Assembly: GCA_047626155.1 (NCBI GenBank)
Contig: JBLHRR010000013.1
Coordinates: 270 to 64,269 of the forward strand
Source of the DNA: Saprospiraceae bacterium
GTDB taxonomy: Bacteria; Bacteroidota; Bacteroidia; Chitinophagales; Saprospiraceae
DNA length: 64,000 nt
Direction of reading: 5' to 3'
The translations under genes were made by a program, and so were the position numbers. Below the pieces are notes generated by a model that did not search any database, was not told the DNA's origin, and saw only the letters and a program-made list of their open reading frames with translations. Position 1 is the first letter of the stretch; each line of letters opens with the position of its first letter. Shown in pieces: positions 18,350 to 54,237 of this stretch.

Positions 18350-18472
18350 TAACAATAAAAAATTAACTTATAACAGTTCAAGCTTTTAGATAAAGCTAAA
18401 CGACTGCAGGGAGAGTGATTTAGCTAAGAGCTTGAGCGTAAACTGTTATAAATTATTTTTTGTGTAATATTA
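18350..18472 (+). repeat. family-1 long-hairpin element, divergent copy (different stems, same loop and flanks)
   Basis: The 5' flank is AACAATAAAAAATTAA. The outer stem TTATAACAGTT (18368-18378) pairs with AACTGTTATAA (18441-18451). The loop is AAACGACTGCAGGGAGAG and the 3' flank is AATTATTTTTTGTGTAATAT. Confidence 0.8.
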
Positions 18473-23130: not shown

Positions 23131-25563
23131 TTATTTCAAATCGATTTGGTATAAAGCTCGTTCTCCCAATTCCTCAGCTTGTTCCACAAACAGGAGTTTA
23201 TAATAATCTCCATTCGCCCAGTCTTTTATCATATTGTCATAATAGATAGAACCAGGATTCCCAGACTGTCCGCCTGGGTAAATACCGAAAGCTTCCAGTT
23301 CTTCTCCAAAGGAAACAACCATACGCCAGGAAGGGCCAAATCCATTTGGGTTCATAGCGTTCAAGGCATTTGGAGAGCCACCGATGGAAATATTTTCAGC
23401 ACCAAAAAAATGCCCCTGAGTTAAGTGCTTGATTTTTACGTTTTGCTGATCGTGCCACAGCAAAGATTCTTTTGCATCCTCTTTTTTTGAAATGTTGGTA
23501 CACATGATCTTAAAAGCTTTATTGACAACCGCTTTTGCATTTTCTTTCTCTGGCGTATTCTTAATGTCAAAGAATTCATTGTTGGGAGCATCTGCGAGTA
23601 AAGCAATGGTGCGCCATTCTTCTGGTACTAAAATATCCTTTCCCTTTTTAAGCGCTTCCATCTCATCCCAGGTCATTTTATAAAAAGAATTAAACCATTG
23701 TTCAAATAAGACAGGAGCGGTAGAATTTGGACTATAGCGATAATCCCATTGGGTGAGTTGTCTCAGATAATCTCGTTCCCACTCATCCAAATTAGTCCGA
23801 TCGATGAGAGGCAGCATGATTTCCAGTGCTTCTTTAGCTTTTAATGAAAAAGTATTGCTTTGCAAATCCATCATATCCTTAGGAATGATATTATCCATTT
23901 TTTCAAGAAAGCTATTCAGCGCTCGGCCCCGATAATCTTCAAATTGACCATTATAATAATAAGGGTAATCTTTTCCCGTAGATCGCTGATTAGCGGAAGC
24001 AACAAAACCACGTTTCGGATTTTTCACTTTGGGGTTGTGCGCCTCAGGTATAAAGCCCTGCCAATCGTTGCTGCTTTTGCTACCATCCTGAATGAAACGC
24101 CCTTGGGTATTTCTTTTAATTGGAAAACGACCTTGTACCTTCAACGCAATGTCTCCTTCTCTGCTTGCAAAGACAAAATTCTGAGCTGGTACTGCGTATG
24201 GTTTTAAAGCTACGGCATAATCGTCATAGTTTTTGGCTTTGTTTAGGTTGTTGATCACTTCTATTTCAGAAGCTTCCGGTTCGAAATGAGCCATCCAGCG
24301 CATGGCGAGATCTTGTTTCGCATGTCCCTTTGATTCATAAACGACAGGTCCCCAAACAGTATATTTCACGGTATCATATACAACTCCTTGTCCCTTTATT
24401 TCATAGCGCTCCACTACTTTATCTACCGCCATTAATTTTCCATCATAAAAATAAGATTCCTTCTTGGCCTCTGCCCAGTTAATGGTATACCAATCGAGAA
24501 CGTCATGAGCGACATTGGTCATTCCCCAAGCAATATCTTTATTGAAACCGATCATTACACCAGGAACACCCGGAAGGCTTACGCCATATACGTTTAGTCC
24601 CGGACTGTGCAGTTGTACTTCATACCAAACAGAAGGCAAGGTCAACGGCAAATGCGGGTCGTTACAAAGAATGGGGCCTTTTGTGTTGGTTTTGCTACCG
24701 GCCACCGCCCAATTATTACTACCAATACCGTCAGGCATCTGTGTACCTTCTCGGCGGGGTAGTGGAAGCTGGCTAAGAGTTGAGTTTATAATACTGTCTT
24801 GTAATTGTTGTTTGAAATTCCATTTAATCTCCGCTGGAATGACAGGGGATTCTTTTGGATTATTATCTGAGTATAATAAATCAAAAGTTTCCTGTCCGAA
24901 ATGAGCCAGTGTATTAGTCGCTTCTAAATCCATATTTCGGATACAAAGCGTTTGCGCCATGTTTTTCAGCATCAGACTCGTTTTCAGCGGAGTCCATGTT
25001 TCAGGGCTATAGTCGAGTAATTTGAATTCAACTGGATAATCCTTAGGCTTTAGTTTATTGATATAAGCATTAACCCCGGCGGTATAAGCCTCCAGCTTGG
25101 CAAAAGCAGCAGGTGATTCCTTCCAGACTTTCAAAGTGTTCGTTGCAGCATAGACCATACCCAGCCTTCGTTGATCCTTATCTGTTGATAAAGTAACATC
25201 CCCAAATATTTCTGATAATCGCCCTGCAGCTTTTCTACTGGCTAGGTCCATTTGGAACAAACGATGTTGAGCGGTAATATACCCTTGAGCGAAATATGCA
25301 TCTTTTTCATTTTGTGCAAAAATGTGAGGGACAAGCCGGTCATCGAGGGTAATTTTCACTGGTTCATTTAAACCGGCCAAATCGTAAGATTCGGACGGAT
25401 ATTTTGTTTGCTCTCCATTTTGCCAAAAACCAGTAAAGGGATTTAAGAGGTTTCCTAAGGGAGGTATGCTAGGGTTTTGAGGATTAGGGCGAATAGAGTT
25501 ACTTAATAGCCAGATAAGAGCGACGGTTATGGCAAGACTGAGGAAAAATAGGAAGCTGCGCAT
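23131..25563 (-). CDS. penicillin acylase-family Ntn hydrolase (possible acyl-homoserine-lactone acylase)
   Basis: 810 aa. It has a signal/anchor sequence and the autoprocessing/nucleophile context GIGSNNWAVAGSKT followed by NDPHL, as in S45-family acylases. Confidence 0.85.
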   Translation of the reverse strand: MRSFLFFLSLAITVALIWLLSNSIRPNPQNPSIPPLGNLLNPFTGFWQNGEQTKYPSESYDLAGLNEPVKITLDDRLVPHIFAQNEKDAYFAQGYITAQHRLFQMDLASRKAAGRLSEIFGDVTLSTDKDQRRLGMVYAATNTLKVWKESPAAFAKLEAYTAGVNAYINKLKPKDYPVEFKLLDYSPETWTPLKTSLMLKNMAQTLCIRNMDLEATNTLAHFGQETFDLLYSDNNPKESPVIPAEIKWNFKQQLQDSIINSTLSQLPLPRREGTQMPDGIGSNNWAVAGSKTNTKGPILCNDPHLPLTLPSVWYEVQLHSPGLNVYGVSLPGVPGVMIGFNKDIAWGMTNVAHDVLDWYTINWAEAKKESYFYDGKLMAVDKVVERYEIKGQGVVYDTVKYTVWGPVVYESKGHAKQDLAMRWMAHFEPEASEIEVINNLNKAKNYDDYAVALKPYAVPAQNFVFASREGDIALKVQGRFPIKRNTQGRFIQDGSKSSNDWQGFIPEAHNPKVKNPKRGFVASANQRSTGKDYPYYYNGQFEDYRGRALNSFLEKMDNIIPKDMMDLQSNTFSLKAKEALEIMLPLIDRTNLDEWERDYLRQLTQWDYRYSPNSTAPVLFEQWFNSFYKMTWDEMEALKKGKDILVPEEWRTIALLADAPNNEFFDIKNTPEKENAKAVVNKAFKIMCTNISKKEDAKESLLWHDQQNVKIKHLTQGHFFGAENISIGGSPNALNAMNPNGFGPSWRMVVSFGEELEAFGIYPGGQSGNPGSIYYDNMIKDWANGDYYKLLFVEQAEELGERALYQIDLK

Positions 25564-39905: not shown

Positions 39906-40002
39906 AAAACGAAAACTGTTAACAAAAACTTCCCACTAACGCGTTATAGAGAAGTTTTCGTTTTAGTTAAATCACGAAAGTGGGAAGTTTATGTTAACAG
40001 TT
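39906..40002. repeat. family-2 element with inverted GTGGGAAG...GTTAACAG termini in the mraY-murD spacer
   Basis: CTGTTAAC-AA-AAACTTCCCACT (39916-39937) pairs with AGTGGGAAGTTT-AT-GTTAACAG (39979-40000). A competing pair is AAAACGAAAAC (39906-39916) with GTTTTCGTTTT (39954-39964). Confidence 0.75.
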
Positions 40003-40017
40003 AAAGTTAATAAAAAA

Positions 40018-41337
40018 ATGAAAGCAGTAATCTTAGGTGCTGGAGAAAGTGGAGTAGGAGCGGCATTATTGGCAAAGCAAGAAGGCTACAAAGTCTTCGT
40101 ATCTGATTTTGGAAAAATAAAAGAGAGCTTTAAAAAGGAATTGGAGCAACATCAAATCCCTTTTGAAGAAAACAAACATACAAACGAATTAATCTTTGAT
40201 GGGGATTGCATTATCAAAAGTCCGGGAATACCCGACACGGTAACTATCGTTCAGGAAGCACTGAATCGAAAAATACCAGTCATTTCGGACATTGAATTTG
40301 CAGCAAAATTCTGTAAAGGAAAAATAATCGCCATCACAGGTAGCAATGGGAAGACAACCACGACCAAACTAATTTACCACCTTCTCCACAAGGCTGGCCT
40401 TTCGGTCGGTATTGGCGGAAATGTAGGATTTAGCTTCGCTAGGTTACTCACCCATAAACAGCAAAAGGATTGTTATGTATTGGAGCTCAGTAGCTTCCAA
40501 TTAGACAATTGCTACGATTTTCGACCAGAGATTGCACTCTTGCTCAATATCACTGCCGATCACATGGATCGCTACGATTACAAGATCAGCAATTACGTTG
40601 CATCGAAATTTCGAATTATTCAAAAACAGCAGGATTCCGATCTTTTTATCTACAATGAAGCAGACGAAAATATCAAATCCTACCTAAATAAAAAGCCAGT
40701 TGGGATGAACACCATTCCGGTTAGTGATAAGTTCTTTGAAAATAAAACAATACGTACACGAGAAAATCAGTACACACTGAAAGGCACGAATTTAAAAGGC
40801 CCGCACAACGGATTTAATGCGACTTGTGCTCTACTCGTTGCTGAAAAGATGGGAATTGCTAAAGAAAGTTTACAAGAGAGTTTAACCACTTTCGTAAATG
40901 CGCCACATCGTTTAGAGTTCGTTGCCGAAATTAACGGAGTCGATTATATAAACGATAGCAAAGCGACCAATGTAGACTCTGTTTATTATGGTTTGCTAGC
41001 TATGGAAAAACCCTTGGTTTGGATCGCAGGCGGTATAGACAAAGGAAACGATTACAGTTCCATTTTACCACTAGTCAAAGAAAAGGTAAAGGCCATAGTT
41101 TGTTTAGGAGCCGACAACGAAAAGCTACTAAAAGAATTTTCACCACTAGTACAAATCATAAAGGAAACACAAAGCGTAACAGAAGCTATTGAACTGGCTG
41201 CTGCTTTTGCAGAACCAGGAATGACGGTTTTATTATCTCCCGCTTGTTCTAGCTTTGATCTTTTTGAAAACTATGAAAAGAGAGGAGAGCTATTTAAGGA
41301 GGCCGTGCATAATCGAAAATTGAAAGAGAACGAATAA
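40018..41337 (+). CDS. murD: UDP-N-acetylmuramoylalanine--D-glutamate ligase
   Basis: The ORF track starts at 39991 inside a repeat. The ATG at 40018 gives MKAVILGAGESGVGAALLA, a typical MurD N-terminus. GSNGKTTT is present. Confidence 0.93.
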   Translation: MKAVILGAGESGVGAALLAKQEGYKVFVSDFGKIKESFKKELEQHQIPFEENKHTNELIFDGDCIIKSPGIPDTVTIVQEALNRKIPVISDIEFAAKFCKGKIIAITGSNGKTTTTKLIYHLLHKAGLSVGIGGNVGFSFARLLTHKQQKDCYVLELSSFQLDNCYDFRPEIALLLNITADHMDRYDYKISNYVASKFRIIQKQQDSDLFIYNEADENIKSYLNKKPVGMNTIPVSDKFFENKTIRTRENQYTLKGTNLKGPHNGFNATCALLVAEKMGIAKESLQESLTTFVNAPHRLEFVAEINGVDYINDSKATNVDSVYYGLLAMEKPLVWIAGGIDKGNDYSSILPLVKEKVKAIVCLGADNEKLLKEFSPLVQIIKETQSVTEAIELAAAFAEPGMTVLLSPACSSFDLFENYEKRGELFKEAVHNRKLKENE

Positions 41338-41355
41338 TATTTTTTGTGTAATACT
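41335..41355 (+). repeat. solo copy of the family-1 3'-terminal motif, beginning at the murD stop codon
   Basis: The sequence is TAATATTTTTTGTGTAATACT. Its last 17 nt (41339-41355) are identical to 41465-41481, the 3' end of the adjacent full element. Confidence 0.8.
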
Positions 41356-41356
41356 T

Positions 41357-41481
41357 AGTAACAACGAAAAATTAACTTTCCGATTTGGAAACAATTATGT
41401 AAATCAAAACGACCAAAGGGAGAGTGATTTATATAATTGTTTCCACGAAAGAAATCGGGAAATTATTTTTTGTGTAATACT
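41357..41481 (+). repeat. family-1 long-hairpin element, canonical copy between murD and ftsW
   Basis: Full architecture is present. The inner stem carries the compensatory pair GGAAACAATTAT / ATAATTGTTTCC. The element ends 8 nt before the ftsW ATG. Confidence 0.9.
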
Positions 41482-41489
41482 TAACGTCC

Positions 41490-42623
41490 ATGTCAATAGG
41501 AAATAAAATATACGCAGAGTTACGAGGCGATAGAGCTGTTTGGATGATCCTACTTATGTTGGTCATCTTTTCCTTGTTGACGGTCTATAGCTCAACGGGG
41601 CATATGGCTTTTCAAAAGCAAGGCGGGAATACCGAATTTTACCTTTTGAAGCATTTTTTCTTCATCTGTATCGGTTTGACCCTGACTTACATTTGTTATG
41701 TTATGCATTATACACAGTATATGAAAATCGCACCGATACTGTTGGTTATTTGTATTCCACTGTTGATGTATACCATAGGATTTGGGGTGGAGGTAAATGA
41801 TGCGAGGCGTTGGTTGAGGATACCTTTTATAGGCTTAACCTTTCAGACATCGGATTTTGGAAAACTAGCTCTGATCATTTATGTAGCCCGCGCAATTTCA
41901 GCGAAACAGGATTATATAAAAGATTTTAAATCGGCTTTCTTACCGATCATCGTACCCATACTGATTATTTGTGGATTGATTGCTCCAGCGGATTTATCCT
42001 CAGCGCTTTTACTTTTTGTAACCTGTATCGGAATGATGTTTTTAGGAAGAGTAGCGGTACAATATATATTCCTGTTGCTCCTATTGGGGATTGTAGTTTT
42101 TGCAGGCTTGATTGTAATCGGAGAATTTTTTCCAGATTTTGTAAGAACAGATACCTGGATCGAAAGACTAAGAGCCTTCTTGGAGGAGACAGAACCGGGT
42201 CACCAGATTCTACATTCTAAAATAGCCATTGCCAACGGAGGCATATTCGGAGCAGGCCCAGGAAACAGTGTAATGCGGAATTATCTGCCAGCTCCTTACT
42301 CCGATTTTATCTATGCTATGATATGCGAAGAGTATGGTTTGGTTGGAGGCTTTACGATAATTTGTTTATATGTGTTTTTGTTTTTCCGTTGTGTAAGTAT
42401 TGTTACAAGAGCACCTAAGGCATTCGGAGCCATGTTGGTTATGGGATTGGGGATGTTGATGGTTATACAAGCATTGGCAAATATGGCTGTAACAGTACAG
42501 TTGGTTCCAGTAACCGGATTGACACTGCCACTGGTAAGTATGGGAGGAACCTCAATCGTATTTACCTGTATCTCTTTTGGAATGATACTAAGTGTGAGTC
42601 GATATATTGAAAAGACAAGTTAG
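41490..42623 (+). CDS. ftsW: SEDS-family cell division protein FtsW
   Basis: 377 aa, polytopic. RWLRIPFIGLTFQTSDFGKLALIIY, SDFIYAMICEEYGLVG and PLVSMGGTS are typical FtsW/RodA motifs. The dcw position supports the call. Confidence 0.9.
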   Translation: MSIGNKIYAELRGDRAVWMILLMLVIFSLLTVYSSTGHMAFQKQGGNTEFYLLKHFFFICIGLTLTYICYVMHYTQYMKIAPILLVICIPLLMYTIGFGVEVNDARRWLRIPFIGLTFQTSDFGKLALIIYVARAISAKQDYIKDFKSAFLPIIVPILIICGLIAPADLSSALLLFVTCIGMMFLGRVAVQYIFLLLLLGIVVFAGLIVIGEFFPDFVRTDTWIERLRAFLEETEPGHQILHSKIAIANGGIFGAGPGNSVMRNYLPAPYSDFIYAMICEEYGLVGGFTIICLYVFLFFRCVSIVTRAPKAFGAMLVMGLGMLMVIQALANMAVTVQLVPVTGLTLPLVSMGGTSIVFTCISFGMILSVSRYIEKTS

Positions 42624-47690: not shown

Positions 47691-47732
47691 TATGGTAATA
47701 CTGTTACATAAAAGGATAAAAAAGCTGAGCTA

Positions 47733-47856
47733 AGTAACAACGAAAAATTAAATCCCGATTTGGAAACAATTATATAAATCAAAACGATCATAGGGAGAGT
47801 GGTTTACATAATTGTTTCCACGAAAAAAGGCGGGAAATTATTTTTGGTGTAATACT
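47733..47856 (+). repeat. family-1 long-hairpin element, canonical copy between ftsA and ftsZ
   Basis: Full architecture is present. The loop is AAAACGATCATAGGGAGAG. It shares the A:T compensatory inner-stem variant with the murD-ftsW copy. Confidence 0.9.
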
Positions 47857-47933
47857 AAATATCAGCAACTGAAATTATTAAGACTTAAGGATCGATTTAT
47901 TTAAACTTATTTAAACTCAAAAAAAGAAATATC

Positions 47934-54120: not shown

Positions 54121-54237
54121 AAAAAAAATTAACTTAGATCGCTGCAATCATTTTTTTAATGCAAAACGACCACAGGGAGAGTGCTTTAACTAAATGATTG
54201 AGAGTATAGTGATCTAAATTATTTTTTGTGTCATAAT
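54121..54237 (+). repeat. family-1 long-hairpin element, second divergent copy (different stems, same loop and flanks)
   Basis: The 5' flank is AAAAAAAATTAA. TTAGATC (54134-54140) pairs with GATCTAA (54211-54217), and CAATCATTT (54145-54153) pairs with AAATGATTG (54192-54200). The loop is AAAACGACCACAGGGAGAG and the 3' flank is AATTATTTTTTGTGTCATAAT. Confidence 0.75.

Follow-up and report, generated by a model that had tools for sequence, protein, structure and literature searches.

A 20-nt direct repeat between murD and ftsW of a Saprospiraceae bacterium probably records two insertions of one hairpin transposable element

The spacer between murD and ftsW in the dcw operon of a Saprospiraceae bacterium is occupied almost entirely by sequence from a short non-coding hairpin element, a miniature inverted-repeat transposable element (MITE). 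We analysed it within a stretch of 64,000 nucleotides (assembly GCA_047626155.1, contig JBLHRR010000013.1, positions 270 to 64,269; hereafter the window), and all features at this locus lie on the plus strand. The murD coding sequence (39991..41337), whose protein is identical in other assemblies and carries Mur ligase Pfam domains there, is taken from the open reading frame (ORF) list and ends in a TAA stop codon at 41335-41337. The ftsW coding sequence (41490..42623), likewise an entry of the ORF list, begins with an ATG at 41490, and its start MSIGNKIY... is kept in congeners. Between the two lie 152 nt (41338-41489), all element-derived bar the final 6 nt. The first part, starting 1 nt past the murD stop, is a relic consisting of the last 17 nt of the 3' terminus of the element (TATTTTTTGTGTAATAC, 41338..41354), recognized from the sequence and from a genome-wide census of solitary 3' motifs. 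It is followed by a TTA (41355..41357) that serves both as the flanking TTA of the relic and as the left target-site duplication (TSD) of a complete element, in a 3-nt register derived from 143 and 222 copies of the family. The complete 123-nt MITE (GTAACAACGAAAAATTAAC...ATTATTTTTTGTGTAATAC, 41358..41480) is delimited by repeat families, alignment and fold, with an nhmmer score of 122.9, and is closed by the right TSD copy, again TTA (41481..41483), as placed by the sequence and the same register. The sole spacer bases that element sequence does not explain are ACGTCC (41484..41489), at the place where congeners have an A-rich tract.

An initial annotation of this stretch had described an element flanked by a 17-nt direct repeat. 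Its positions for the murD stop, the ftsW ATG and the 17-mer (ATTTTTTGTGTAATACT, 41339-41355 and 41465-41481) agree exactly with the sequence and the ORF list, and its count of 8 nt from the end of the element to the ftsW ATG is correct. The direct repeat is real, but its length was understated: it measures 20 nt (TATTTTTTGTGTAATACTTA, 41338-41357 and 41464-41483). The further description of the element as filling the spacer exactly is nearly true, falling short only by the ACGTCC before the ATG. A flanking repeat longer than 8 nt is found in just 2 of 143 high-scoring copies of the family, namely the murD-ftsW copy and one at C56:5403. Eleven further assemblies of this strain, from JGI and Logan, match the spacer base for base over the part that each covers; four of these span it completely and seven break within the repeat, as is expected at a repeat. 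The arrangement is therefore not an assembly artefact, and it is apparently fixed in the sampled population.

Folding of the murD-ftsW element resulted in a long interrupted hairpin of -43.6 kcal/mol (z = -6.2), and no shuffled sequence was equally stable. The predicted structure comprises an outer A-tract/T-tract helix (41364-41375 with 41462-41473), a basal stem (41377-41386 with 41453-41461), a 3' bulge (41446-41452) and an apical 20-bp stem (41387-41406 with 41425-41445) that closes on the apical loop AAACGACCAAAGGGAGAG (41407..41424). Alignments of divergent copies reveal the same loop sequence across subfamilies whose stems differ. The stems change by compensatory substitutions, with three to four Watson-Crick pair types per position of the basal stem among 28 representatives (<80% identity). 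The best conserved parts of the element, across subfamilies and species, are its termini. These form an imperfect terminal inverted repeat, in which consensus positions 1-4 pair with 121-124 and 8-16 with 108-116, and the whole element is near-palindromic. No ORF fits inside the 123 nt. No Rfam 15 covariance model matched at its gathering score anywhere in the window, the matches below threshold being just generic AT-rich hairpins.

A profile search (nhmmer) of the source genome (G000; 5.93 Mb, 278 contigs, 39.7% G+C) identified 222 non-overlapping full-length copies. Approximately 146 of them constitute a young main subfamily, to which the murD-ftsW copy belongs, and 76 are more divergent; the window holds seven copies, two of which (18357-18469 and 54123-54235) are of divergent subfamilies. 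The 5' terminus GTRACAACRAAAAATTAA occurs 286 times in the genome and the 3' terminus ATTATTTTTNGTGTAATAC 275 times, compared with 12 and 1 occurrences of the respective reversed control patterns. Outside full copies there are 73 solitary 5' termini, 66 solitary 3' termini and 18 internally deleted derivatives (32-168 nt). Many of the solitary 3' termini retain upstream element sequence of differing length and are therefore truncations. Truncation from the 5' side in the style of retro-elements was rejected, as solitary 5' ends are as frequent as 3' ends. The MITE label rests on the TSDs, one empty site, the copy number and the terminal inverted repeat.

Among the deleted derivatives, several forms recur, namely positions 1-25 joined to 84-125, 1-35 to 97-125 and 1-62 to 92-125, together with a 32-nt minimal form (examples at C18:45020-45079, C150:12543-12604 and C143:5191-5279). 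This recurrence suggests that the hairpin is frequently lost via slippage between short AAATTA repeats near both termini. A separate module of ~25 nt, CCAGCCCGTTCCGGTCAGGCGG, occurs in 18 places (for example C259:1875, C19:10430, C154:9523, C11:38625 and C12:49047), nearly always at the exact junction of the basal stem (...CTAAA) with the terminal TTATTTTTTG, whether in a copy or in a solitary 3' terminus. It is a candidate for a second mini-insert, which would be nested and precise in its target. Contigs of uncultured Saprospiraceae metagenome-assembled genomes (MAGs) carry the same repeat; the source communities are wastewater or bioreactor. A full-text literature search for Saprospiraceae and 'miniature inverted-repeat' returned no title or abstract concerning such an element, and the family, although of a known kind, is apparently undescribed so far.

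Full copies are flanked by a direct TSD of 3 bp, which is exact in 94 of the 143 high-scoring copies (TAA 46, TTA 29, ATA 9) and in 116 of the 222 overall, with far fewer matches in shifted-register controls. Its middle base agrees in the direct and not the inverted sense (A-A 62, T-T 55, discordant A/T 15, among the 143 copies), and the reconstructed target consensus is TWA preceded by C and followed by R (C/TWA/R). Of the 96 copies that follow a co-directional gene, 17 have the stop codon of that gene overlapping their 5' TWA duplication; insertion into a TAA stop regenerates a stop (TAA, or TA plus the G of the element) and is thus tolerated. The clear 3-bp duplication contradicts an element of the IS200/IS605 or REP/RAYT type (no search for a Y1 transposase was made); such elements duplicate no target, insert beside a fixed tetra- or pentanucleotide and form short REP-like hairpins.

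The size of the duplication can be read at an orthologous empty site within the dcw operon itself. The spacer between ftsA and ftsZ holds a second copy (47731..47858, plus strand), made up of a TAA (47731-47733), the element (47734-47855) and another TAA (47856-47858). This spacer is 243 nt long here vs 110 nt in the nearest congener, G004, which shares ~86% identity with the source genome in murD and ftsW. When the flanks of the copy are joined with one TAA kept, they align gap-free and collinearly to G004, where there is a single TAA; by this alignment, the copy was evidently inserted with a 3-bp duplication. A long TSD, one of the explanations that the initial annotation had offered for the direct repeat, is excluded for a family that duplicates 3 bp, and the empty-site comparison with a relative that had been named beforehand as the test yields 3 bp only. 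The same annotation had seen a degenerate version of the terminal motif after the ftsA stop. The string is present (TAATATGGTAATACT), but as a relic it fails: it aligns to native GAAATACT/TAAGAAATACT in G004, which is element-free at ftsA-ftsZ and carries the native spacer counterpart, and the 8-mer GTAATACT turns up genome-wide no more often than the reversed control pattern does (308 vs 259). As judged from these alignments, it is most likely native spacer sequence.

At murD-ftsW itself, a single-target empty site is unreadable because the spacers are too diverged among congeners. Both the 17-mer and the element are absent from this spacer in all five congeners (G001-G005). The spacers of G001 and G002 are ~75 nt long, with an A-rich tract at the end before the ATG. 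The G004 spacer (C89:10740-10960, minus strand) contains an unrelated, G+C-richer palindrome of ~110 nt, gggtggatgagggttgatgagggcagataatggtagataagggttccc ... gggaacccttatc..., whose first bases encode the last murD codons and a TGA stop, and that of G005 (C22:40885-41250, minus strand) contains a hairpin with a loop, AAAAGCGACCAAAGGAAGCC, similar to the conserved loop of the family, without the family termini. In G003 (C30:10920-11245, minus strand), a stretch of ~45 nt from the 3' end of murD (gcgcagtttaaaaatcaagttcaaa..attaataat) stands on both sides of an insert of ~120 nt, a flanking duplication that is both long and genuine. In this Saprospiraceae lineage, the spacers of the dcw operon are hot spots of turnover, with different palindromic elements in the same murD-ftsW spacer of different species.

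We consider it probable that the murD-ftsW spacer records two events of this one ~123-bp family, stacked on one TTA. Of one copy, only the final 17 nt of the 3' terminus would remain, right after the murD stop and with its flanking TTA kept. A complete copy would then have come to sit at exactly the TTA of the relic, leaving a TTA on either side. As the relic and the complete copy share this TTA, relic terminus plus TTA and complete terminus plus TTA would form the 20-nt direct repeat and mimic a long TSD. The two copies together would have displaced nearly all of the ancestral spacer, which in relatives measures ~75 nt. Which event came first, and where the relic came from, we infer from this layout. 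We entertained the possibility that the relic was instead a hairpin-less mini-element reaching into murD, where AACGAATAAT resembles the 5' terminus AACGAAAAAT; however, GAGAAC...GAAT is also found in the murD end of G002 and is therefore native coding sequence.

Other loci of the genome display comparable stratigraphy. C56:5403 has the same architecture, with a ~30-nt 3' fragment just past a stop codon, TAA, a full copy and TAA again; two loci are mirror images, with a full copy, TWA and a 5' fragment (C2:74530 and C21:49934); and in a nested case on C175, a main-subfamily copy lies within an older divergent copy. Given 561 termini and 67,871 intergenic TWA sites, chance alone predicts 1.8-3.0 insertions at a TWA beside an existing terminus. 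With two to three such events expected by chance, no special end-targeting is required, and we rejected it as a necessary mechanism. A preferred insertion motif, another of the initial suggestions, holds weakly, in that the ...ATAC+TWA end of the element fits C/TWA/R, but special targeting is unneeded. The suggestion that fits best is a remnant of a neighbouring or tandem copy, in view of the second locus of the same architecture and the dozens of solitary termini.

Several observations weigh against the two-event account. The 11 other same-strain assemblies contain no empty murD-ftsW allele and none with the relic only (...GTGTAATACTTAACGTCCATG, without the full copy), and when metagenome contigs were scanned for the exact pattern of the end of murD, the one match was a chance match to an unrelated gene. 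We found no partner transposase with these termini, in a search that was not exhaustive and among MAGs, which lose insertion sequence (IS) copies. Long-range pairs of termini in the genome enclose ordinary genes and no transposase, the MAG has no multi-copy ORFs, and the rve, DDE_Tnp_1 and DDE_Tnp_4 loci from six genomes of the genus are without the 3' terminus, apart from one that simply adjoins a truncated copy; the counts of termini in G003 are just 8 and 3, and no two of them form a pair at IS length. Copies of the divergent subfamilies have their 3' end toward a gene start in 45 cases vs a gene end in 12 (~55% start expected; p = 2.5e-4), which hints at an orientation-dependent effect of the 3' end that the two-event model does not explain. 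Finally, the AAATTGGG variant, uncommon in the family (8 of 145 copies), is present at C56 in both the fragment and the adjoining full copy, a coincidence that fits a local duplication or a neighbour hop better than two unrelated insertions.

The last point favours a tandem dimer followed by deletion, which we regard as possible but unlikely at murD-ftsW. A local head-to-tail duplication, by slippage between two TTA repeats or by transposition of a resident copy into its own flanking TTA, would have preceded a deletion, probably helped by the hairpin of the upstream copy, that removed the bulk of that copy as far as the murD stop. Besides AAATTGGG, the C56 fragment and its neighbour have the base at a variable position in common, for a joint chance of ~3% if they were independent, and hairpin deletions are frequent in the family, the shortest of the 18 internally deleted derivatives measuring 32 nt. 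Abutted-end junctions are, moreover, intermediates of some IS families such as IS30. The assembly, however, contains no intact head-to-tail dimer; two full direct repeats should collapse to one copy and not to a 17-nt stump; the 20 nt shared at murD-ftsW are without a diagnostic variant; and chance reuse of a flanking TWA already explains the number of cases. That the 17-mer is instead a native spacer motif, such as an old promoter or leader, which the element targeted or from which its 3' end derives, appears very improbable. The ~66 solitary 3' motifs, several of which lie 9-20 nt ahead of a start codon, would suit such an origin, as would the C at -1 of the target consensus, supplied by the ...ATAC end of the motif. 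Yet the motif is missing from the murD-ftsW spacers of every congener, solitary 5' termini match the 3' ones in number, solitary 3' motifs show no excess orientation toward gene starts (35 vs 23; 55% expected), and many of the 'solo' motifs are truncations that retain varying upstream element sequence.

The initial annotation had also raised the question of whether the element supplies an outward promoter. The promoter signal was calibrated on 200 nt upstream of genes in the source genome, with elements masked. TAnnTTTG is enriched on the sense strand (884 vs 552 antisense), and TTG peaks at a distance of 19-20 nt before it (46 and 41 vs a background of ~15). No such enrichment is seen for the forms that most copies carry (sense vs antisense, TAnnTTTT 1055 vs 1387 and TAnnnTTTG 352 vs 507). 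The murD-ftsW copy reads TATTTTTTG, a -7-like box that is one T too long and belongs to a class depleted on the sense strand upstream of genes; its nearest TTG is 24 nt upstream, not 19-20, and the ATG follows 17 nt past the TTTG. The copy does not conform to the Bacteroidota sigma-A promoter pattern (-33 TTTG, -7 TAnnTTTG). Copies 29927 and 47733 (29924 and 47732 in our numbering) do read TATTTTTG, an exact -7 box, as had been claimed, and the exact box occurs in 13 of the 222 copies with no orientation bias (7 vs 5). On these motifs a promoter for ftsW in the murD-ftsW copy is unlikely, with its overlong box, its distant TTG and the rarity of exact boxes in the family, while the ftsA-ftsZ copy, which has the exact box, may conceivably contain one.

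A simple consensus terminator scan of 41000-41800 identified no intrinsic terminator. The hairpin (~30 bp, with an 18-nt loop, an A/U-rich base and UUAUUUUUU directly after the basal stem) differs from the canonical compact, G+C-rich terminator, although with TTATTTTTT after it on one strand and TTAATTTTT on the other it looks terminator-like both ways. A GC-rich module before the T-run, considered as a terminator hairpin, folds only weakly (-9.6 kcal/mol) and was rejected. T-run length and hairpin energy are alike in sense operon-internal, antisense, divergent and convergent contexts, and 18 sense copies lie in spacers of <200 nt, which leave no room for a separate promoter. The negative scan, the context-independent T-run and stability and these short-spacer copies argue for substantial read-through across the element. 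A terminator, pause or processing role for the predicted hairpin is nonetheless plausible.

Given that a convincing promoter is missing from the element, whose end lies 8 nt before the ATG, transcription of the dcw operon most likely reads through the element to express ftsW. In the mRNA, the element would form a ~30-bp interrupted double-stranded hairpin followed by UUAUUUUUU, and its likeliest effect would be modest and post-transcriptional, as an RNase III processing or stability site or by leaky attenuation; we consider adaptive regulation less likely. The 20-bp perfect helix stacked on a 10-bp helix would be a plausible RNase III substrate, as for the Correia elements of Neisseria (PMC10969869), and by this analogy we infer that RNase III may process the element. 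The strain does encode the enzyme. A whole-genome family search wrongly reports RNase III absent because contig C78 stops within the gene, rnc (24815-24906), 90 nt past its start, with the remainder missing from the assembly; other assemblies of the strain contain an intact 252-aa rnc beside fabF.

Between co-directional genes, 72 copies are in sense and 40 in antisense orientation (p = 0.003). The main subfamily is unbiased, with its 3' end toward a gene start in 68 cases and a gene end in 56. In the divergent subfamilies, only one copy lies between convergent genes vs 20 between divergent genes. Their bias is independent of the -7 box, TTG spacing and terminal variant, and the 5' end shows no orientation bias. 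An extended -10-like CATAAT was rejected as the cause, since copies with GTAATA ends have the same bias. The bias of these old subfamilies therefore implies some orientation-dependent filtering at the 3' end over time.

These data allow two functional readings to be weighed against a two-insertion origin. One holds that the element is a regulatory cassette in the dcw operon, its hairpin and T-run terminating or attenuating transcription after murD and its 3' promoter restarting ftsW, with the ftsA-ftsZ copy acting likewise for ftsZ. The very stable hairpin with TTATTTTTT immediately after it, the sense orientation of both dcw copies, the excess of sense copies between co-directional genes, the 3'-end bias of the older subfamilies and the exact boxes of copies 29924 and 47732 all speak for it, and Correia elements do carry promoters (PMC10969869). 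We nevertheless think it improbable: the promoter statistics of the genome disfavour the one-T-longer form of the murD-ftsW copy, whose TTG is also misplaced; exact boxes are few and unoriented; the old-subfamily bias does not follow box or TTG spacing, and the main subfamily, murD-ftsW copy included, has none; T-run length and hairpin energy are equal in operon-internal and other contexts; and the terminator scan was negative. The other reading, which we hold to be similarly doubtful, is that the hairpin is more than a selfish passenger, and that a specific factor binds the family as a co-opted module of transcribed RNA (or single-stranded DNA). It draws on the invariant apical loop (AAACGACC..GGGAGAGTG) on compensatorily changing stems and from the orientation-specific retention of older copies. 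If it were true, processing or attenuation at the copies within the essential dcw operon would determine the murD, ftsW and ftsZ stoichiometry.

Known mobile elements offer partial parallels to the family. Tourist-like MITEs of PIF/Harbinger transposons and those derived from the related bacterial IS5 family are likewise small, AT-rich hairpins with a 3-bp TTA/TAA TSD and a preference for the vicinity of genes, but no DDE_Tnp_4 or DDE_Tnp_1 transposase with matching termini was found in the genome or its congeners, and the resemblance is one of TSD alone. The IS30 family generates 2-3-bp duplications and targets its own ends, and the sequence at 41347-41365 (3' end, 3 bp, 5' end) is formally an abutted-end junction of the kind found in IS30-type (IS)2 dimers. 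Here, however, the rve-domain loci are without the termini and no IS30-like partner was identified, the number of junctions is within chance, and one partner is always truncated. The pneumococcal BOX, RUP and SPRITE repeats are also small and insert beside or into one another in intergenic DNA, and SPRITE resembles a rho-independent terminator (PMC10969869); their sequences and hosts are unrelated, and the present family differs in its clear 3-bp TSDs and its one long hairpin. Correia elements (CREE/NEMIS) are non-coding palindromic MITEs of 100-155 bp, mostly intergenic and with hundreds of copies, for which promoter, termination and RNase III processing effects are documented (PMC10969869). 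They too often abut genes, are co-transcribed as a long hairpin and have a conserved central region (PMC10969869). In contrast to Correia elements, which duplicate TA and carry sigma-70 promoters and an IHF site, the present element duplicates TWA (3 bp), resides in a Bacteroidota genome that uses TAnnTTTG, has no support for a promoter and combines covarying stems with a fixed apical loop.

The long direct repeat around one copy is, under the favoured two-insertion account, ordinary transposon stratigraphy, and illustrates how an element with a 3-bp TSD can mimic a long target duplication. The family is of interest for its fixed termini, its fixed loop on covarying stems and the orientation bias of its old copies. 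For the organism, the locus means that an essential, tightly packed operon tolerates a predicted RNA hairpin of ~30 bp only 8 nt from the ftsW start codon.

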